From the NCBI GenBank assembly GCA_036394195.1, contig DASWFO010000062.1, forward strand, positions 18,514 to 82,513: 64,000 nt of DNA, in the 5' to 3' direction. The translations under genes were made by a program, and so were the position numbers. Shown piece after piece: positions 2,858 to 60,014 of the stretch. The number at the start of each line of letters is the position of its first letter. Position 1 is the first letter of the stretch. Source of the stretch: Alphaproteobacteria bacterium (GTDB taxonomy: Bacteria > Pseudomonadota > Alphaproteobacteria > CACIAM-22H2). The notes below the pieces were generated by a model. That model was not told the DNA's origin. It worked only from the letters and a program-made list of their open reading frames with translations, and did no database searches.

Positions 2858-4126
2858 TCACAGCCGGTCTCCGATCGTCTTCTCGATGTCGGCCAGCAGC
2901 ATCCGCTCTTCGGCCTGCACTTTCAGCAATTCGAGGCGGACCTCCTGGACGCGGTGGGCCGCTTCCAGCACGGAAGTGAGGTCGCCGCGGCCGAGCTGAT
3001 AGCTGCTCAATGCCGAGCGGTATGCCGCGTCGGTCTGCGGCTGCAGGGTGGTCGTGAGCAGCGCTTCCGTCGTCTTGGCCGCGTCCAAGCCGGCCAGCGC
3101 ATCTTCGAGGTCGCCCTGGAGCTGAAGCAGCGACGCGTCGAGCCGCGAGCGCGCTGCTCCGGCACGTGCCGTGGCCTCACGCGCCTGGGCTTCGCGGAGT
3201 CCCCATTGCAACGGCACCTTGAGGCCGACTCCCGCATAGAGGCGTGGCCCGATATCGGGCAGGCTGCTCTGGCCAAGCGTCACGGTGACGTCGGGATACC
3301 AGCTCTTGTCGACCAGCCGGCGACTGTCTTCCGCCGCCGCGATCTCGGATGTGGCTTCGGCCAGCATCGGATTGTTCCGCCGGGCGCGGTCGACGAGGTT
3401 CGCAATGCGCAGCGCTTCGGCGCCAGGGAGCGGCGGCAACGCAATCGGATCGGTGAGCGGCGAGCCCGGCGCCCTGGCGAGCAACGCGTTGATGCGACCT
3501 TGCGCCGTCCGCTTCTCACGCTCCAGATTCGCGAAGTCGAGGTCGACCCGGCTGCGTTCGACCGCACTGCGGATGGCATCGGCCTGCTGGCCGAGGCCCT
3601 GCCCGTAACGCCGCTGCGCCGTCTCCGCGACGGCATGCAGGAGGGCATGCGTGTCGTGGGTCACCTCGACCGCATGCGTCGCCCGCCAATATTGAGCGAA
3701 CACGGTCTTGACCCGCGCATCGAGCTCCACGGCCGCCGAGAGCTGGCGGCTGCGCGCCCCCAGCGCCTCGGCATTGGCGATGCTGCGCGCGAGGCCGCGC
3801 TTGCCCCAGAGCGGGAACGCCTGCGAGACGGTGGTCAGCGTCTGACGAAACCCCTCGTCCCGCGACAGGTTCAGCATCGGGTCTTCCAGCGCCCCCGCCG
3901 CCGAGGCTTTGGCTGTGGCCGCGTCCGAATCGAGTGCCCGGGCCGCCAGGGTCGGGTTGAGGCGGCGCGCCAAGGCGAGCAGCTCGTCGACCGTCGCGCC
4001 CGGCGGCGGGCCGGCTTCGGCCGCATGCGCCGGCAGGGCGCTCATTGGGGTGGCGGCCAGCGCCGCTGCGATGCCGACGGCGCGGCCGAACCGCAAGGCC
4101 GCCGCGGCAAGCCGATGGGCGCGCAT
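2858..4126 (-). CDS. cusC: TolC-family outer membrane efflux factor (CusC-like)
   Basis: The 422-aa ORF has a signal peptide and the two-fold repeated alpha-helical/beta-barrel OEP pattern typical of the TolC/OprM family. It lies in an operon with cusBA. Confidence 0.8.
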   Translation of the reverse strand: MRAHRLAAAALRFGRAVGIAAALAATPMSALPAHAAEAGPPPGATVDELLALARRLNPTLAARALDSDAATAKASAAGALEDPMLNLSRDEGFRQTLTTVSQAFPLWGKRGLARSIANAEALGARSRQLSAAVELDARVKTVFAQYWRATHAVEVTHDTHALLHAVAETAQRRYGQGLGQQADAIRSAVERSRVDLDFANLEREKRTAQGRINALLARAPGSPLTDPIALPPLPGAEALRIANLVDRARRNNPMLAEATSEIAAAEDSRRLVDKSWYPDVTVTLGQSSLPDIGPRLYAGVGLKVPLQWGLREAQAREATARAGAARSRLDASLLQLQGDLEDALAGLDAAKTTEALLTTTLQPQTDAAYRSALSSYQLGRGDLTSVLEAAHRVQEVRLELLKVQAEERMLLADIEKTIGDRL

Positions 4127-4127
4127 G

Positions 4128-4547
4128 TCACTTCGGGACCGGAACGGTGACGGTGCCGCGCACCGCCTGCGGCTCGCCTTGCACCCGCGCCGACAGGGTC
4201 AGCCCCCAATTGCCCGGCATCGAGGGCTGCGCCTCGAACCGATACACGCCGGGCTCGGTCGCGGGGAGCGCCTTCACGGACCCGCCCATCTCCGCCATGC
4301 CGTCCGGACCCATGTCGAATTTGCTCTGAACGATGACGGCCCCGGGAACGGGCTTGCCGTCCGGAACATGGACTAGGCGGACGTTCACGAGCGTCGCGTG
4401 CGCCAACTTGGCCGGCGGACCGGCGAGCTCGAAGCGGTAGTCCTGCGGGGCGGCCATCGCCGGCACAAAGGGCAGCGCCAGAAGTGCTGCGAGAACGGCG
4501 TAGCGGCACCGAGCGGCCGCGCTCCGGCCGCGAATAACAACGGACAT
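4128..4547 (-). CDS. Exported FixH/YtkA-like protein; second paralog
   Basis: The start is at MSVVIRGRSAAARCRYAVLAALLALPFVPAMAAP, which is a signal peptide. It shares the QDYRFELAGPP motif and overall ~35-40% identity with 1654..2046. Confidence 0.55.
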   Translation of the reverse strand: MSVVIRGRSAAARCRYAVLAALLALPFVPAMAAPQDYRFELAGPPAKLAHATLVNVRLVHVPDGKPVPGAVIVQSKFDMGPDGMAEMGGSVKALPATEPGVYRFEAQPSMPGNWGLTLSARVQGEPQAVRGTVTVPVPK

Positions 4548-4726
4548 GTCTCTTCTCCTGGATCGCGTTGACGGACTCGGAACGGCGCCGTACGAGCGGC
4601 ATCGTCCGAGCAGCCCCGCGGTGGTTCCGGCCATGCCGCTAAAAAGCGGCGCGGCCCGAACTTCGGCGGGCTTTAAGCGGAATTGCTCAGCTCAGCGCCC
4701 TGCCGCACGGCAAGGGGCTGTGCCGG

Positions 4727-5074
4727 TCAAACGCGCGATCGCGGAGGAGAAGGATCGGGAGAAACGGTGACGCCGGCCAGCGCCCGACTGGAGGTCCAGT
4801 AGCCAACATCGGCCCAGACGATCTCGGTGGCAAACGGCGTGGCCGTGGCGGGCAGAGCGCACATGACGATGCAGCTGAGGTCGCCGCTACAACCGGGCAT
4901 CGGTATCGTCTTCGACGATCCGTCAGAATGCCCGGCCATGTCCATGTCCGTGCCCATCATCATGGCGCAGGGCTGCGCCGCCGCAGCCCGCCCGGGGAAC
5001 AACGGCCCCAGCGCCGCCGCTACAAAGGCCAGCAACGTGAGGAGCGCCATGACGCGGGTCCGGAGGGACGCCAT
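4727..5074 (-). CDS. Small exported Met/Cys-rich protein (CAMMMGTDMDMAGH...); second copy of the putative Cu-binding accessory protein
   Basis: An internal ATG at 5074 gives a signal peptide (MASLRTRVMALLTLLAFVAAALG). The Met/Cys clusters are paralogous to 2274..2621. The longer ORF in the track is an unsupported upstream extension. Confidence 0.4.
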   Translation of the reverse strand: MASLRTRVMALLTLLAFVAAALGPLFPGRAAAAQPCAMMMGTDMDMAGHSDGSSKTIPMPGCSGDLSCIVMCALPATATPFATEIVWADVGYWTSSRALAGVTVSPDPSPPRSRV

Positions 5075-51870: not shown

Positions 51871-53247
51871 ATGATGACCGAAAGCGAGTTTCCGACCGAA
51901 TTCGCCTCGGGCTGGAAGGACATGACCCAGCCGGAGCTCGACGAGTCGATGCGGCTTCACCACATGTTCAAGCTCGGCCAGCTGGGCGGGAAGCGCGCCA
52001 ATCTCAGCTTTCGCAACCTCTCCTATCGCGACCTGTCGAACCACGATCTGTCGGACGCCGATTTCAGCGGCTGCCGCGCGCAGCACGCCAACTTCCGCGG
52101 CACGAACCTGTCGGCCGCCAATCTGTTCGCGGCCGATCTCCGGGCCAGCGACCTGACCAACGCGATCCTCACCCGGGCGGATCTGCGCGGCGCCTGCGTG
52201 CGGGGGGCCGTGCTGACGAACGCCGAGATGCACGAGGTCGATCTGCGCGCCGGCGTACTGCTCAAGTCCGACCGCCGCGGCAACCTCGCGATGATGACCT
52301 TCGACATGAACGTCGCCGATCTCGGCAACGCGGTCATCCGGGGCGCCGACCTCACGGGCGCCAAGCTGTCGAACGCGTTCATCATGCAGACCGACCTCAC
52401 CGACGCGATCCTGCGCAACGCGAAGCTGCAGAAGGCCGACCTCAGCCAATCGAACTTGACCGGCTCGGTGCTCGAAGGCGCCGATCTGTCCGAGGCGAAC
52501 CTCACCGGCGCCATCTTCCACGGCGCCATCCTCGCCCGCGCGATCATGCACGGGACGAAGCTCGAGGGCGCCGACCTGACGGGCGCCATGCTCGACGACC
52601 TCGACAAATCCCGCACCGATTTCAGCAAGGCGCGCCTGCCGCGCCATCTGGACTCGCTCGGCGCCTCCCTGAAGGAGGTGCTGATCCAGCATACGCAATG
52701 GATCCACTCCTCGGGCAAGACCGGCCGGCGCGCCGAGCTCGCCCGGTTCGACCTCAGCCGGCAGAACCTCGAGGGCGCGAATCTCTCGGCGGCGAGCCTG
52801 GAGCTGACGGTACTGCGCGGCGCCGACCTGTCCAAGGCCAACCTGCTGATGGCGGACATGAGTTACGCCGACCTGCGCGAGGCCGATCTGAGCTATGCCG
52901 ATCTGCGCGGCGCCAGCCTCCGGCGGGCGAACCTCACCGGCGCCAGGCTGGTGGGAACCCGGGTCGGGCCGGTCGACATCCTCGGCTCGTCGACCCACAT
53001 CTGGTCGGCCAATCTCGAAAATGCCAAGCTCCTCAACACCAATCTCAACGGCGCCGAATTCCGCCGCGCCAAGATGCAGAGCGTGAACTTCACCGGGGCC
53101 ACGATGACCGGCGCTGTTTTCAAGCACGCCAATCTGCAGGACGCGATCTTCACCCGCGCCGACACGCGCGGGGCCGATTTCGAAAAGGCCGACACGCGCG
53201 GCACGGTCGACCTGCACGGTCCGGAACCGGACGACGACGCTCGCTGA
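51871..53247 (+). CDS. Large cytoplasmic pentapeptide-repeat protein (458 aa, ~70 quintets)
   Basis: It is made of continuous A(D/N)L.. pentapeptide repeats ([25 protein letters not shown]...). Confidence 0.75.
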
Positions 53248-53263: not shown

Positions 53264-54676
53264 GTGACTCGCTCCGACGCCATTCTCCTTGCCAGCCGAT
53301 ACTTCGATGAGGGCGGGTTTGCCGCCGATCTCGCACGGCGCGTCGCGATTCCCACCGAAAGCCAGAATCGCGACCGGGCCGACGCGCTCGCCGCCTATGT
53401 CGAGGGTGAGCTCAAAGAGACGCTGGGCGGCCTCGGCTTCGCCTGCCGGACGCTGACGGAAGCCCGGGCCCTTGGCCCGTTCCTGTACGCCGAGCGGATC
53501 GAAGACCCCGGTCTGGTCACGGTGTTCTCCTATGGCCATGGGGACGTGATCCGCGGTCAGGACGCGCAATGGTCGCAAGGGTTGTCACCGTGGCGGCTGA
53601 CCGCCGACGGCGACCGTCTCTACGGCCGCGGCACCGCCGACAACAAGGGCCAGCACAGCGTGAATCTCGGCGCGCTCGCCGCGGTGCTGAAGGCGCGCGG
53701 CCAGCTCGGATTCAATCTCAAGCTCCTCATCGAGACGGGTGAGGAAATGGGCTCGCCCGGCTTGCGCGAGCTGTGCGAGCGGCACAAATCCGAATTCAAG
53801 GCCGACGTGCTGATCGCCTCCGACGGTCCGCGCCTCTCGGCCGACCGCCCGACCCTGTTTCTCGGCTCGCGCGGCGGGGTCGCCTTCGACCTGACCGTCG
53901 ACCTGCGCGCGGGCGCGCATCACTCCGGCAACTGGGGCGGCTTGCTGGCCAATCCGGGAATCATTCTCGCCCACGCCCTGGCGACAATCACCGGCCCAAC
54001 CGGGCAGATCCGCATCCCCGAATGGGTGCCATCGGAGATTCCGGCGCCGGTGCGCAAGGCGCTCGCCGATTGCATGGTGGACGGCGGCCCCGACGGGCCG
54101 TCGATCGATCCCGGCTGGGGCGAGCCGAACCTGACTCCGGCCGAGCGGGTGTTCGGCTGGTGCAGCTTCGAAATCCTCGCCTTCCGCACCGGCAACCCCG
54201 ATCAGCCGGTCAACGCCATTCCGCCCAAGGCGACGGCACGCTGCCAGCTTCGCACCGTCGTCGGGATCGATGCCGACCAGGTGCTGCCGGCGCTGCGGCG
54301 TCATCTCGATCGGCACGGCTTTCCGATGGTCAAGCTGGCGCCGGCCCGCGACGATTTCTTCCGCGCCACGCGGCTCGACCCTGAGCATCCTTGGGTCCAG
54401 TGGGCGGCGCGCTCGGTGACCGCGACCACCGGCCGCAAGCCGGCCATCCTGCCCAATCTCGGCGGCTCGCTGCCCAACGACATCTTCAGCGAGATCCTCG
54501 CCTTGCCGACGGTGTGGGTGCCGCACTCCTACCCCTCCTGCTCGCAGCATGCGCCGGATGAGCACATGCTCGCCCCGGTCGCCCGCGAGGGCTTGCAGAT
54601 CATGGCCGGCCTGTTCTGGGACCTCGGCGAGCCGGGCACGCCGCGCCAGCGTCCGGCGGACAACGCCGCCGCGTGA
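53264..54676 (+). CDS. M20-family metallopeptidase/dipeptidase
   Basis: Metal ligands are present (HGDV..., ..DNKG.., ..E(E)..). It is 470 aa. Confidence 0.7.
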
Positions 54677-56259
54677 GGGAGACAATCATGGATCGACGCG
54701 AGTTCATGAAGGTCGGCATCGGCGCCGGGACGATGGCCCTGTCGCCGATGGCGAGGGCGGCGGCCGCCGACAAGGCATGGCATGCCGGCCCGGTCGAACA
54801 TCTCCTGCCGACGGTCAACGACCGCCGGCTGCTGCTGAAAGTCTCGCTCAGCCGGCCGGAGCGCGCCGTGTCGCTCGTCATCGGCGATCGGCGCGTCGCC
54901 GGACGCCGCACCGACAGCGACGGCTTCAATTGGGGCTTCGACGCGACGGCTCTGCAGCCGAGCCACGCCTACACGCTGACGCTGGTCGACGCCGCCGGCC
55001 GCGCACTCTGCGATTCATGGCCGATCCGGACATTCCCGGCGCCGCAGGACGCGCCGCAAAAGCTGCGCCTTGCCATCTATACCTGCGCCGGCGGCCACGA
55101 TCTTCTCGGGCTTTTCGTGCCCATGACGACGCGCGTGCGTCTGTTGCAGCGGGCCCTCTCGTTCCAGCCCGACGCCGTCATTGCCAACGGCGACCACATC
55201 TACTGGGACCAGCGGACGGTCAGGGCACGGCAGTCGGGGGCCTCGCCGCGCGCCGAGGCCTACGCGGGACGATTCGATCGCGTGGCTCCGGTCCTGGGCA
55301 GCCCGAACGAAGCGGTGCTGAAACGCGCGGTCGGCCCGCAGATCGCGCCGCTCTACGGCACGCACTGCCGCTCCACGCCGGTCTTCTTCGTCCAGGACGA
55401 CCACGACTATTTCGAGAACGACGAAGCCGACGACCGCTTCGTGAGCTTCCCGCCCGATCCCTTCATGTTGGCGGCGGCGCGGGCCTCGCAGAGCCTTTAT
55501 TATCCGGAGTTCCTGCCCGACCCCAACCGGCCGCTCGGCCTCGCCTCGGCGTCGGCGAATGACCGGCCCGCTGGAATTTCGGAATCGTTCGGGACGCTGC
55601 GCTACGGCCGCCTCGCCGAGATCCTGATGTACGACTGCCGGCGGTTCATGACGCTGAAAGGACAGAGCGCCACGTTCGTTCCGCCGGAGACGGAAACCTG
55701 GCTGAAGGCGCGCATGGCCTCGGGCGACACCGGCCATGTCATCAACATCCCGTCGACGCCGCCGGGCTGGAGTGCCGGCAAGTGGGGCGAGTGGTACGGC
55801 GATCTCGAGGCCAACGGCGGCCTGACCACCACCAAGCCCAAGCCCTACTGGCAGCCGGGCTGGCGCCAGCAGCATGACCGCCTGCTGCAGGCGGCGTCCG
55901 CCATGAAGGGCCGCATCCCGCTGTTCATCAGCGGCGATCTGCACGCCATCGGCGAGACGCGCATCCGCCGGACCGGCGATGTCGACCTCGCGGCCAATCC
56001 CGTCGTGTCTATTCTATCCGGCCCGATCGGCACCGACAATTACGGCTGGCCGTCTTTTTTCCGGCGGATGAGCCCGCAGACGCCGGCGGGGCTCGCTGTC
56101 GACGAGCTGCAGCCGGCCATCGAGGAAAACGGCTTCCTGATCGTCGACCTCACGCCGGAAACGATCACGGCGCGGTTCTTCAAGTGGCGCCACGAGAGCC
56201 CGGATGTGATCGCCGGGCTTGAGCCGTTCCGCACGACCGTGTTGCGCCGCAACGCCTGA
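54673..56259 (+). CDS. Tat-exported PhoD-like metallophosphatase
   Basis: It has a twin-arginine signal ([25 protein letters not shown]) and GDHIY / GDLHA metallophosphoesterase motifs. Its start overlaps the M20 stop. Confidence 0.55.
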
Positions 56260-56274
56260 GCGGGCGCCCGCGGC

Positions 56275-57267
56275 TCAGCGCCAGACCGCGCCGACGATCA
56301 TCGCCAGCACGACAGCGGCGTACAAGATCACGAATATCGGAAGCAGCCGGCGATCGAGCTGGAGTGCTGCGGCCTCGCTCCCGGTTTCGGCGTAGGAGCG
56401 CGCGATGACCGCCGCGATGCCGACCAGGAATCCCGCGCCGAGCGTCACCAGATGAATGCGGTCGATGAGGGTCGAGCCGAACGGCGCCTCGATGTTCCCG
56501 CTGTTGACGCGCATGCTGATCAGCGTGGTGAAGACCGTGGCGGCGGTCACCCCCATGCGTCCCGCGAAGATCGGCGGCAGGGTCGGGTTCATCCGGAAGG
56601 TCAGCGCCATGATCAGGAAGGCCACCACCGCGCCGATCGACAGGTCCACGAACAGCGCAAGGCCGTGGCGCTGCAAATCGACGTTGAATATCAGGCGTGA
56701 GGACTGCACCGGCCCCGGATGCCGCAAATCTCCGAAGTTGGTCGGATAGGGATGCTCCTCGGTCGCGACACTCCAGCCGGTCACCGACCAGCCGGTCAGC
56801 GAGACCGACTGCGCGATCCCCGAGCGCTCCCGGTCGGCAACGAACAGGAGCTCGGCGGTCGTTCCGAAGCTTTCCTCGATCACGATCTGCACCGTCTGCC
56901 GGTCAAACGGAAAGTGCGAGGTATCGAAGCGGTTGTTCACAGTCGCGCGGATGCGCTGCTGATCCCAGCGGCGGCTGCCCTGTTTCTCGGTGAGAATCGG
57001 CTCGGTCGTCTTGGCGGCTTCGTTGACGATGTACGCGGTCTCGAGGGGGGAGCGCGGGCGGGTCTCGCCGTCGACGACGGTCCAGATCCAGAAATCGACG
57101 GCCGCGGTGCCGGCGGCGAAATTCAGATTGTTGAGGCCGGTGAGAAAGACGCCGATGGTCACCTGTTCGGGTTCCGCCGCGGCGGCCCGGGGCGCGGTGA
57201 ACGTCGCGACGATGGCGAGCACCACGGCGAGCACGCCCGCGACGTTCGCCGCCGGCCGGCGCGTCAC
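56275..57267 (-). CDS. Candidate prokaryotic pentameric ligand-gated ion channel (Cys-loop-superfamily homologue, GLIC/ELIC-like)
   Basis: The GTG start gives a signal peptide. A ~190-aa beta-rich periplasmic domain carries the hallmark FPFDRQTVQ (FPFD-x-Q, the beta6-beta7 Cys-loop motif). Four TM helices follow, with a Thr/Ser-rich M2 and a Pro-containing M2-M3 loop. The start overlaps the carbonic anhydrase stop. Confidence 0.55.
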   Translation of the reverse strand: MTRRPAANVAGVLAVVLAIVATFTAPRAAAAEPEQVTIGVFLTGLNNLNFAAGTAAVDFWIWTVVDGETRPRSPLETAYIVNEAAKTTEPILTEKQGSRRWDQQRIRATVNNRFDTSHFPFDRQTVQIVIEESFGTTAELLFVADRERSGIAQSVSLTGWSVTGWSVATEEHPYPTNFGDLRHPGPVQSSRLIFNVDLQRHGLALFVDLSIGAVVAFLIMALTFRMNPTLPPIFAGRMGVTAATVFTTLISMRVNSGNIEAPFGSTLIDRIHLVTLGAGFLVGIAAVIARSYAETGSEAAALQLDRRLLPIFVILYAAVVLAMIVGAVWR

Positions 57268-57950
57268 TCCGTGCCTTTTTGAGTGACGAGACGCGGACCT
57301 TGGAACCCCTTGGCGGAGATCGGATCGATCTCGTCGGGCGATGAGATCGTCACCCCGAGGTCGTGGATTCGGCCGTCGTCGATGCCGTAGATCCAGCCGT
57401 GCACGGCGACGTCCTGGCCGCGCCGCCACGCACGCTGCAGCATCGACGTGTTGCAGACGTGGCGGACCTGCTCGATGACGTTGATCTCGCAGAGCGCATC
57501 CACCTGAGTCTCTTTTGGGAGGACCTCGATCTGCTCGCGATATTGCTGGGCCAGCGCGCTCAGGCTGTACAGCCAGTTGTCGATGAGCCCGAGTTCGTGC
57601 CGCTTCAGGGACGCCTTCACGCCCCCGCAGCCGTAATGGCCGCAGACGATGACGTGCCGCACGCGCAGCGCTTCGACCGCGTATTGGATGACCGCAAGGC
57701 AGTTGAAATCGACGTGCATCACCTGGTTGGCGACGTTCCGGTGAACGAACACCTCTCCGGGCATCACGTCGATGATCTCGTTCGCCGGCACGCGGCTGTC
57801 GGAGCAGCCGATCCACAGCACCTCCGGCGATTGCTGTTTGGCGAGTTTCTCGAAGAACCCGGGGCGCTTCTCCACGACACGCGCCGCCCACTTCCGGTTG
57901 TTCTCGAGCAACCGGCCGAGCGTTCGATCCTTATCGTCAGGCCCCGACAT
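57264..57950 (-). CDS. can: Beta-class carbonic anhydrase
   Basis: CSDSR and HYGCGG zinc-ligand motifs are present. It starts at MSGPDDKDRTLGRLLENNRKWA. Confidence 0.85.
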   Translation of the reverse strand: MSGPDDKDRTLGRLLENNRKWAARVVEKRPGFFEKLAKQQSPEVLWIGCSDSRVPANEIIDVMPGEVFVHRNVANQVMHVDFNCLAVIQYAVEALRVRHVIVCGHYGCGGVKASLKRHELGLIDNWLYSLSALAQQYREQIEVLPKETQVDALCEINVIEQVRHVCNTSMLQRAWRRGQDVAVHGWIYGIDDGRIHDLGVTISSPDEIDPISAKGFQGPRLVTQKGTE

Positions 57951-58000
57951 AGAGGAACCATCGCCCAGGCGTGGGCCCAATGCAACCGAAACGGCGGACG

Positions 58001-58942
58001 TCAGGCCACAGCGGTGATGTCGTCGATTTGTCTTATTTCGGCCAGCGTCAGCGTCCAGCCGGCGGCGTGGACATTCGCCTCAACCTGTTCCGGCTTGGTG
58101 GCGCCGGCGATCACGCTCGCCAAGGTCGGTCGCGACAGGAGCCAGGCGAAGGCGAGATCGAGCAGGCTGTGTCCGCGCGCGTCCGCGAACCCGCGCAGCT
58201 TCTCAACCTTCGCCCAGTTCGCGGCGGTCATATACTTGTCCGCGTGGTTCTGCATATAGGAGAGGCGGGTCCCCTTCTCGGGCTTCTGGTCGCGCCGGTA
58301 CTTGCCGCTCAGCAGACCGCTCGCCAGCGGGAAGAACGGCAAGAGGCCCATGCCGTACTTCTCGATGGTCGGTATCAGCTCGCGTTCGATGTCGCGCACC
58401 ACCAAGCTGTATTCGTCCTGGCAGGAGACAAAGGCCGAGATCCCCAGCCGCTTTGAGGTCTCCTCCGCCTCGGCAACCTGCGCCGCCGGCAGGTTGGAGC
58501 AGCCGATGTAGCGGACCTTGCCCTGGCGGACCAGATCGTCGAGGGCGCGCAAGGTCTCCTCGATCGGCGTCGCCGGATCGGGCCTGTGCAGCTGATAGAG
58601 ATCGATCCAGTCGGTGTTGAGACGCTTGAGGCTCGCCTCCACGGCCGAAACGACGTAGCCGCGCGACGCGTCCAGCTTGCCGCCCTTCTGGATCGGCATG
58701 CCGAACTTGGTCGCCAGCACGATGTCCTTGCGGCGCGGCCCCAGGATCTTCCCGAGCGCCTTTTCCGACCCGCAATCTTCGCCGTAGACGTCGGCCGTGT
58801 CGAACAGCGTGATGCCGGCGTCGAGCGCCTTGTGAACGACCTGGCGCGATGCCTCGAGGTCGATCCGGCCGCCGAAGTTATTGCAACCGAGGCCGATGAT
58901 CGAGACCGCCGGCCCCGCTTTGCCGAGCTTGCGCGTTTCCAT
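58001..58942 (-). CDS. Aldo/keto reductase
   Basis: It starts at METRKLGKAGPAVSIIGLGCNNFGG, with the catalytic tetrad context (D..Y..K..H). Confidence 0.8.
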   Translation of the reverse strand: METRKLGKAGPAVSIIGLGCNNFGGRIDLEASRQVVHKALDAGITLFDTADVYGEDCGSEKALGKILGPRRKDIVLATKFGMPIQKGGKLDASRGYVVSAVEASLKRLNTDWIDLYQLHRPDPATPIEETLRALDDLVRQGKVRYIGCSNLPAAQVAEAEETSKRLGISAFVSCQDEYSLVVRDIERELIPTIEKYGMGLLPFFPLASGLLSGKYRRDQKPEKGTRLSYMQNHADKYMTAANWAKVEKLRGFADARGHSLLDLAFAWLLSRPTLASVIAGATKPEQVEANVHAAGWTLTLAEIRQIDDITAVA

Positions 58943-58945
58943 GTG

Positions 58946-59093
58946 CATTCACTCCGTCATCGCGAGCGGAGCGAAGCGATCCAGTGGCTGCCTTCTGGAT
59001 TGCTTCATCGCCCGGGGATGCAGGGGGCTTCGCCCCTGCGAAAGATTTGGGCTCCTCGCAATGACGACTGGAACCAGACAGCCGAGCGAGAGC
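58946..59093 (-). repeat. REP family B element (inverted copy)
   Basis: Its reverse complement matches 47835..47960. Confidence 0.8.
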
Positions 59094-60014
59094 TTAGGCG
59101 ATCTTGCGCGCCTCGGTCGAGAGGCCCGCGCGCTCGAGGACCGCGTCGAGCCGCTTGGCGAGCTCGGGCGTCGCCGGCACCATCGGCAGCCGGTGCTCCT
59201 CATTCGGCAGGATCCCGAGCCGCTTCATCATGTACTTGATCGGGATCGGGTTGGTGTCGAAGAACACCGACTGGTTGAGCTCGAACAGCTCGTAATGGAG
59301 CACCTTGGCGCCGGCGAGATCGCCCGCGGCGGTTTTCTCGTACAACGCCGCGATCTTGCCGGGCGCCAGATTGCCGACCGCGTTCATCAACCCGCGGGCG
59401 CCGACCGCCAGCATCGGCAGCGACAGGTCCTCGAGGCCGACATGGACGCGGAACTCGGGCCCGAGCCGCACCAGGAGCTCGGTGACGAAGGTGAGGTCGT
59501 TGACCGCGTGCTTGATGCCGACAAGGTTCGGCGCCTGGTCCACGATCTGCGCCACCGTGTCGACCATGATGTTGACCGCGGCGCGGCCCGGGATGTGATA
59601 GATCATCACCGGCAGATCGGTGCGCTTGGCGAGATCGATGAAGTATTCCGCCATGCCGCGCTGCGGTGGCCGGATGAAATACGGTGTCAGGATCAAGAGC
59701 GCGTCGGCGCCGGCCTTCTCGGCTGCTTTGCTCAGTGTCACGGTGTCGGCGTGGCTTTGCGAGCCGGTCGCGGCCACGACGGGCACCCGGCCGGAAGCGG
59801 TCTTCACCGCCACCTCGACCAGCTTGTTGCGTTCCTCGATGGTCAAGGTGGAGGGTTCGCTGGTCGTCCCGTTCACCAGGACGCCGTGCGAACCGCCGGC
59901 GATCTGGCGCTCCACCAGCCGCGCATAGGTCGCGTAGTCGACCTCGCCGTTCTTGAACGGCGTCACCAGCGGCGGGATCGAGCCGCAGAGATGGTTCGGC
60001 CTCAATGAAATCAT
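59094..60014 (-). CDS. DapA/NAL-family class I aldolase (dihydrodipicolinate-synthase-like lyase)
   Basis: The Schiff-base Lys context is present (..GIKHA..) along with the Thr/Tyr motifs (GTTSE, ..YH.P). Its catabolic neighbourhood suggests it is not the housekeeping dapA. Confidence 0.65.
   Translation of the reverse strand: MISLRPNHLCGSIPPLVTPFKNGEVDYATYARLVERQIAGGSHGVLVNGTTSEPSTLTIEERNKLVEVAVKTASGRVPVVAATGSQSHADTVTLSKAAEKAGADALLILTPYFIRPPQRGMAEYFIDLAKRTDLPVMIYHIPGRAAVNIMVDTVAQIVDQAPNLVGIKHAVNDLTFVTELLVRLGPEFRVHVGLEDLSLPMLAVGARGLMNAVGNLAPGKIAALYEKTAAGDLAGAKVLHYELFELNQSVFFDTNPIPIKYMMKRLGILPNEEHRLPMVPATPELAKRLDAVLERAGLSTEARKIA

Follow-up and report, generated by a model that had tools for sequence, protein, structure and literature searches.

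A divergent pentameric ligand-gated ion channel homologue overlaps a Can-type carbonic anhydrase gene in a conserved pair of uncultured soil Alphaproteobacteria

In a 64,000-nucleotide stretch of alphaproteobacterial DNA (contig DASWFO010000062.1 of assembly GCA_036394195.1; hereafter the window, meaning this stretch at its full length), we examined two overlapping genes on the minus strand. An original prediction, made from the letters of the DNA, had called the upstream gene a beta-class carbonic anhydrase (CA) and the downstream gene a pentameric ligand-gated ion channel (pLGIC). We found that the upstream gene encodes a Can-type CA, that the downstream gene encodes a very divergent protein with the pLGIC fold, and that the two genes stand side by side at every informative locus of one small clade. 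We propose that they form a two-gene operon in which Can feeds a gated pathway for bicarbonate (HCO3-) and other anions, a reading to which we assign a probability of about 0.42.

Direct reading of the window sequence confirmed both open reading frames (ORFs) on the minus strand, at the following coordinates:

57264..57950, minus strand: Can-type beta-carbonic anhydrase, ATG start at 57950, 228 aa, no signal peptide
56275..57267, minus strand: divergent pLGIC (Pro-loop receptor) homologue, GTG start, 330 aa
57264..57267, minus strand: GTGA overlap, in which the channel GTG start lies over the CA TGA stop, read directly from the sequence

The overlap that the original prediction described is therefore real. 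The channel GTG occupies 57267-57265 and the CA TGA occupies 57266-57264, so that the same DNA reads ...GGC ACG GAG TGA in the CA frame and GTG ACG CGC in the channel frame. The CA is identical in length and sequence to P0167, a deposited protein of an "Alphaproteobacteria bacterium" metagenome-assembled genome (MAG), and the channel ORF is identical to P0001, a deposited protein of an uncultured "Alphaproteobacteria bacterium" MAG. Because both products match these entries in length, the same start codons were picked by independent annotation. A promoter and terminator scan of 56000-59200 gave nothing informative: its one promoter-like site falls outside the operon, and sites resembling terminators were about as frequent as chance would give.

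The upstream protein is a beta-class CA, as had been predicted. It matched Pfam Pro_CA at E=3.3e-52 and scored 273.4 bits against the NCBIfam equivalog PRK10437 (NF007756, "carbonate dehydratase"), which has a cut-off of 251. Its matches among solved structures included E. coli Can (1i6o) at 5e-74 and a P. aeruginosa CA (4rxy) at 5e-81. The zinc ligands and the catalytic dyad (CxDxR ... HxxC) are in place as C49, D51, R53, H105 and C108. The positions of the non-catalytic bicarbonate site are filled by W46, R71 and Y188, which we take to be Trp39, Arg64 and Tyr181 in the E. coli/H. influenzae numbering. The protein has no N-terminal hydrophobic or signal segment, and its alignment to cytoplasmic Can begins at residue 11, both of which place it in the cytoplasm. 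We conclude that the upstream protein is an ordinary cytoplasmic type-II beta-carbonic anhydrase, an orthologue of Can/YadF.

For the downstream gene, the original prediction had set a Pfam match to PF02931 (Neur_chan_LBD) and PF02932 (Neur_chan_memb) beforehand as the first of its refutation tests. Pfam gave no match to the channel protein at E<=1, so the assignment formally fails that test, and it is rescued by profile and fold evidence alone. A PDB search with the single channel sequence returned 78 matches, and the 60 best that were listed were all pLGICs (GLIC chimeras at 4e-5, DeCLIC at 9e-5). We built a profile from an alignment of 16 clade sequences (A1) and searched PDB with it. The A1 profile matched a chimera of the GLIC extracellular domain (ECD) and the GABA-A transmembrane domain (TMD) at E=1.6e-11, with both domains covered by the alignment; its match to GLIC reached about 2.5e-7. 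When the clade profile was compared by hhalign to P0017, the one relative with a precomputed PF02932 match, the probability was 99.4% (E=6e-22). NCBIfam also gave matches to the channel (chorismate mutase, 19.5 bits against a cut-off of 106), which we rejected as spurious and sub-threshold.

The fold points the same way. An AlphaFold2 single-chain model made on A1, with a mean predicted local distance difference test score (pLDDT) of 81 and a predicted template modelling score (pTM) of 0.67, has a signal helix at residues 6-23, beta strands at 34-200, and helices at 203-223, 231-256, 267-294 and 298-329. The model thus has a beta-sandwich domain and, after it, a membrane domain of four helices. 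Foldseek matched it to chains of GlyR, GABA-A and GLIC at E of about 1e-19 with TM scores of 0.65-0.73. The ORF is also not a chance reading frame of high-GC DNA, because 16 full-length homologues (46-64% identity) align with it end to end and share 45 invariant columns. We conclude that the downstream ORF encodes, as predicted, a pLGIC-fold protein of the pLGIC superfamily and that it is a very divergent relative of GLIC and the GABA receptors. The parts of the protein map to the DNA as follows:

57175..57267, minus strand: signal peptide, residues 1-31, with an AAA/EP cleavage motif (slash at the cleavage point), from the sequence and the AlphaFold2 helix at 6-23
56668..57174, minus strand: periplasmic beta-sandwich (ligand-binding) domain, residues 32-200, with DSSP strands at 34-200, aligning to the GLIC ECD
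56893..56913, minus strand: Pro-loop motif FPFDRQT, residues 119-125, aligned with GLIC YPFDSQT
56599..56661, minus strand: M1 helix, residues 203-223, with an invariant Gly212 in place of the canonical M1 Pro
56500..56577, minus strand: M2 pore helix, residues 231-256, with A235 (-2'), G236 (-1'), R237 (0'), A243 (6'), F246 (9') and R253 (16')
56386..56469, minus strand: M3 helix, residues 267-294, with conserved D269 and H272, from the AlphaFold2 model and residue frequencies
56281..56376, minus strand: M4 helix, residues 298-329, after a very short M3-M4 loop, from the AlphaFold2 model

All of the features that had been listed for this protein are present: the signal-peptide-like N-terminus, the FPFDRQT motif, the L-Q-R element (L198-Q199-R200) preceding M1, the Thr/Ser-rich M2 (GVTAATVFTTLISMRVNS), the proline of the M2-M3 loop (Pro262) and the four helices. 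The size given for the periplasmic domain, about 190 aa, was too large, as we measured about 170 aa. The N-terminus reads MTRRPAANVAGVLAVVLAIVATFTAPRAAAA/EPEQ, and the N-termini of the homologues line up at the cleavage point. Across 148 sequences of the wider family, W60, W62, P120, D122, D145, G179 and R200 are conserved. The Pro-loop pattern [FY]-P-[FM]-D is present, with P120 in 148/148 and D122 in 147/148 sequences, and the pre-M1 arginine, R200, is invariant in the clade and found in 145/148 wider-family sequences. At the site of the M1 proline we found Gly212 (Gly in 16/16 clade members; Pro in 26/148 of the wider family), and at 9', where Leu is canonical, we found Phe246 (Phe in 16/16 and 138/148, respectively). 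The glycine at the M1 proline site and the phenylalanine at 9' are variants within the pLGIC fold and not evidence against homology.

The original prediction had proposed to check the gene neighbourhood for conservation of can with the pLGIC, and this check came out positive. We gathered loci from contig look-ups of clade proteins, a genome scan, a metagenome scan and a look-up from the CA side, followed by tblastn and translation of contig ends. In 17/17 distinct clade loci with readable upstream DNA, a Can-type CA gene lies directly upstream of the channel gene on the same strand, and the clade channel was never met without it. One of the linked loci (L036) was found starting from the CA side. 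Beyond the 17 loci, L022 shows just the last six CA codons, and four more end at or inside the channel gene. The junctions between the two genes measure -4 nt (three versions, including the window), -1 nt (two), +1 nt (three), +13, +19, +22 and +36 nt. Given a real overlap and the tight junctions kept in related loci, co-transcription and translational coupling of CA and channel can be soundly inferred.

The flanks of the pair vary from locus to locus, with aldo/keto reductase (AKR), TetR-like and DUF305 genes among the neighbours and TctC, a PhoD-like gene or a 456-aa ORF downstream. We compared pairwise identities over 11 complete pairs and found 40-89% for the channel and 62-94% for the CA. 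The two sets of identities correlate (r=0.91) and both proteins fall into the same three subclades; the pair is therefore inherited as a unit.

The original prediction had proposed Bradyrhizobiaceae for the neighbourhood check. The pairing is specific to one small clade of uncultured soil Alphaproteobacteria and is general neither to the channel family nor to Bradyrhizobiaceae. In an exhaustive search with hidden Markov models, the family comprised 3,176 cluster representatives (50% clustering) at E<=1e-3 and 455 at E<=1e-30, and the clade is sharply set off within it: at its edge the E-value goes from 1e-127 to 1e-76, and identity, at least 46% inside the clade, is about 25-31% beyond it. The clade amounts to 17 protein clusters among 5.8 billion, and clade-specific patterns found one locus among 185,579 species-representative genomes. 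No CA was found within 4 kb of wider-family channels at 26-32% identity (Streptomyces, Azospirillum plasmids).

On the CA side, Can orthologues that are 77-79% identical to the window CA are present in other MAGs, where a KaiC-like ATPase and a phosphorelay follow and no channel does. The window CA is nearer to these unlinked orthologues than to the linked CAs of the other two subclades. We placed 124 Can orthologues in a neighbour-joining tree, a simple tree without support values, in which the linked CAs form several groups interspersed with other Can orthologues, including one confirmed unlinked lineage. We had also considered that the linked CAs are a dedicated paralogue clade. This was not supported, as they pass the Can equivalog cut-off and are scattered among Can orthologues in the tree. 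Read most simply, the can-channel operon was ancestral in a group of soil Alphaproteobacteria, and the channel was often lost from it.

The M2 register that we used (R237 at 0', F246 at 9', R253 at 16') comes from HMMER alignments to the GlyR and GABA-A TMDs and from hhalign to P0017. In this register, R0', A6', F9' and R16' are invariant in 16/16 clade members, R225 closes M1, and none of the 16 has an acidic residue from -5' to -1' (A, G or S at -2'; G or A at -1'). The wider family shares R0' in 135/148 sequences and F9' at the frequency given above, and R16' is found in just 56/148. An acidic residue at 19' occurs in 80/148 wider-family sequences versus 2/16 in the clade, and the charge of the M1-M2 loop and M2 start is +2 per subunit in the clade versus about 0 in the wider family. 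In P0017, the same register puts E at -2' and L at both 9' and 16'. The A1 profile gave higher scores to GLIC-ECD chimeras carrying a GABA-A or GlyR TMD (47.1 and 37.3 bits, with the alignment running through the TMD) than to GLIC (about 31-33 bits, ECD only).

Under the rule of Tasneem et al., A-[RK] indicates anion and E-[RK] cation selectivity (PMC549065), and by this rule the clade pore bears an anion-type signature. The proline at -2' that is typical of GlyR and GABA-A is absent from it. Because the pore lacks the acidic ring that renders GLIC- or ELIC-type channels cation-selective, and instead bears fixed arginine rings at 0' and 16' with a phenylalanine gate at 9', we predict from the sequence that the channel conducts anions. 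The anion branch of the superfamily serves here as a working analogy and not as a statement of phylogenetic membership.

These features suggest how the pair could work. The channel would be translated by termination-reinitiation at the GTGA overlap and exported by Sec, which would place its beta-sandwich domain in the periplasm. The subunits would presumably assemble as a homopentamer. A periplasmic signal, most plausibly pH or a small anion, would open the pore, and HCO3-, probably along with Cl-, would then cross the inner membrane. Can would hold cytoplasmic CO2/HCO3-/H+ at equilibrium, so that the HCO3- pool tapped or supplied by the channel would be replenished at once. Across an inside-negative membrane, the expected outcome would be net HCO3- efflux, H+ retention and depolarisation, and the pair as a whole would act as a gated valve for pH and inorganic carbon. 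What the two genes encode, their overlap, the pLGIC fold and the conserved clade-specific linkage are shown by the data above; that the channel forms a pentamer, selects anions and passes HCO3-, which way the ions flow and what opens the pore are inferred. We favour coupling via the permeating anion because the CA is cytoplasmic, the ligand-binding domain is periplasmic and the pore is of the anion type. There are precedents for such an arrangement in the microsynteny and gene fusions of can2 and sulP (PMC6458275) and in the cytosolic CA VII/II that sustains bicarbonate-driven currents through GABA-A receptors, themselves pLGICs (PMC3746197).

Several points weigh against a bicarbonate pathway fed by Can. 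A passive HCO3- leak would oppose the retention of inorganic carbon that is Can's usual task, and tight gating would be needed. The enzyme is of the housekeeping type and has equally close unlinked orthologues, so it is not visibly specialised for the channel. A profile of the TMD only found no match in PDB and so gave no sign that the TMD is nearer to anionic than to cationic receptors. The sequence signal for pLGIC homology thus comes mainly from the ECD, and the M2 register leans on ECD-anchored alignments and on a single relative compared by hhalign. We assume from general pLGIC geometry that R16' faces the lumen. In addition, the periplasmic domain carries an average net charge of -5 per subunit, which does not speak for a vestibule that attracts anions; this charge, checked as a predictor of anion selectivity, lends the prediction no support.

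The linkage could also be historical and carry no mechanistic coupling, the channel having landed behind a housekeeping can in a narrow alphaproteobacterial ancestor, where it borrows the can promoter and is often lost. The small size and rarity of the clade (17 clusters; 1/185,579 genomes) would fit this, as would a CA that is a standard Can equivalog, the interspersed linked CAs with one interleaved lineage confirmed to be unlinked, and wider-family channels that have no CA. Simple vertical co-inheritance would likewise be expected to produce a co-variation of r=0.91. Against this, the pair persists down to 40% identity for the channel and 62% for the CA amid reshuffled surroundings, its junctions never exceed 36 nt and overlap or abut in five independent versions, and no informative clade locus (17/17) keeps the channel after losing the CA, so that loss seems to be one-way. 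We view an uncoupled history as somewhat unlikely.

The original prediction suggested a pH- or bicarbonate-gated channel module. On such a sensor reading, the channel would be gated by protons, CO2 or bicarbonate and conduct another ion to depolarise the cell or signal, with the CA setting or sharpening the CO2/HCO3-/H+ signal. The CA, however, is a cytoplasmic Can orthologue without a signal peptide and the ligand-binding domain is periplasmic, so the enzyme has no direct control over the amount of ligand at the binding site, and the reading is topologically indirect. Moreover, the clade-specific changes (R16', R225, the loss of acidic 19') cluster in the pore, which points to permeation and not to sensing, and we regard a sensor as unlikely. 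We give still less credence to a non-conducting pLGIC-fold protein, such as a periplasmic receptor or scaffold, whose pore would be occluded by bulky Phe 9' and Arg 16' rings. Canonical positions do deviate (Gly for the M1 Pro, Phe for Leu 9', Arg at 16'), and both the Pfam channel models and the TMD-only PDB search miss the protein. Nevertheless, the four helices, the pre-M1 Arg, the Pro-loop and the Pro/Gly of the M2-M3 loop are under clear purifying selection, F9' is a trait of the family (138/148) rather than a sign of decay, and the pore of ELIC also bears a Phe (F16'). We consider loss of conduction very improbable.

A bolder form of the Can-fed anion pathway would make this clade the first anion-selective, bicarbonate-conducting prokaryotic pLGIC, forming with Can a valve for HCO3-, gated by a ligand or by pH, that would control cytoplasmic pH and inorganic carbon. 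We advance this tentatively and consider it doubtful as a whole. If true, the valve would be the first physiological role for any bacterial pLGIC, and the pair would be an operon-encoded bacterial counterpart of the neuronal carbonic anhydrase/GABA-A bicarbonate current.

Compared with GLIC, the proton-gated channel of Gloeobacter, and with ELIC, sTeLIC and DeCLIC, the channel described here is about 15-19% identical and has no Pfam match. It lacks their acidic -2'/-1' ring and has R0', F9' and R16', and it combines a shorter ECD with a longer loop C that bears a conserved TNFGD motif. To our knowledge, the characterised prokaryotic pLGICs are cation-selective. A pore of the predicted anion type, ringed by Arg at 0' and 16', would be novel in that group. 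ELIC is called cation-selective in the title of one report (PMC12637682). GluCl, GlyR and GABA-A have L9' and a small residue at 16', whereas the channel has F9' and R16', and unlike them it has neither the Cys-loop disulfide nor Pro at -2'. The link between neuronal cytosolic CA and these anion receptors is physiological, whereas the link here is genetic, through the operon, and bicarbonate permeability is only predicted.

The can-sulP pairs resemble the present one in that a cytoplasmic beta-class CA gene lies beside, or is fused to, a membrane anion pathway and is conserved there across taxa; they have been read as systems for HCO3- uptake or efflux and interconversion, possibly in pH homeostasis (PMC6458275). 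The partner in those pairs is a secondary transporter, whereas here it is a ligand-gated, passive channel that is structurally unrelated to SulP. Tasneem et al. (2005) also reported bacterial pLGIC genes in predicted operons that hinted at function, and used the residues just before M2 to predict pores of the cation as well as the anion type (PMC549065). The partners in that study were PBP-II, Cache and a Na+/H+ symporter, with 0 occurrences of carbonic anhydrase or bicarbonate in the text (PMC549065).

The original prediction knew of no earlier description of the pairing, and we found none in the searchable literature, which leaves out subscription-only work. Within that scope, no characterised prokaryotic pLGIC has been reported in an operon with carbonic anhydrase, full-text searches for pLGICs together with carbonic anhydrase, operons or gene neighbourhoods returned nothing relevant, and a 2016 inventory mentions neither carbonic anhydrase nor bicarbonate. 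The fold is known, the conserved genetic partner is new, and the pore is unusual. GLIC, ELIC and their relatives are major structural models for neurotransmitter receptors. A conserved coupling to CA offers a concrete, testable physiological hypothesis for a bacterial pLGIC, namely the handling of bicarbonate and pH. Its wider significance is limited by how rare the clade is and by its restriction to uncultured organisms.

The wider family consists of pLGIC-fold proteins of about 320-350 aa that share R0', F9' and a TxFGD loop-C motif. With about 3,200 cluster representatives, it is a large and under-annotated pLGIC family: PF02931 reaches E<=0.01 in 15/50 sampled members, and the sampled members are mostly named "hypothetical protein", as are the examples on RefSeq plasmids. 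One member, a channel homologue of 27% identity on plasmid pAB510b of Azospirillum sp. B510 (L016; NC_013856.1, 35109-43858, reverse complement; locus coordinates 3782-4870), lies between an MlaA-family lipoprotein gene and genes for CheW, a methyl-accepting chemotaxis protein and an MscS-type channel. The setting is of the chemotaxis type that Tasneem et al. put forward for pLGICs of bacteria.

Upstream of the pair, the window contains a further gene on the same strand:

58001..58948, minus strand: aldo/keto reductase gene, 50 nt upstream of the CA gene (Pfam Aldo_ket_red, 4.4e-72)

This AKR gene may be co-transcribed with the CA-channel pair. We considered a three-gene AKR-CA-channel operon as the conserved core and rejected it: a same-strand, orthologous AKR lies upstream solely in the closest subclade (L006, L008, L009), and elsewhere the neighbour is a different, divergently oriented AKR or a TetR-like gene. 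AKR genes adjoin the CA in two subclades (the window gene at 58001-58948 and L001-L004), and the two AKRs are 27% identical and lie in opposite orientations, so their adjacency to the CA may be a coincidence or a loose functional association.

Other neighbourhoods held further observations. On a 47-kb forest-soil contig (L036, 5311-8195), DUF305 genes stand on both sides of the CA-channel pair, which adjoins a two-component system and cytochrome c maturation (ccm) genes. The unlinked Can genes in L031-L035 (CA at 4001-4687 in each) share a conserved context of their own, with a divergent IclR regulator gene upstream; downstream follow genes for a KaiC-like ATPase, then for a hybrid histidine kinase, an Hpt protein and a response regulator. 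A carbonic anhydrase beside a KaiC-like signalling cassette may merit a study of its own.

Downstream in the window, a plus-strand gene at 54673-56259 encodes a 528-aa protein with a twin-arginine-type signal and a weak match to PhoD-like phosphatases (E=9e-8). It converges on the channel gene, the two stops lying 16 nt apart, and is not kept beside the pair at other loci. Further along, 51871-53247 on the plus strand encodes a 458-aa protein that consists of pentapeptide repeats over nearly its whole length (Pfam PF00805, E=2.7e-73). The opposite strand and the other frames hold very long ORFs that are spurious, as is typical of this high-GC sequence.

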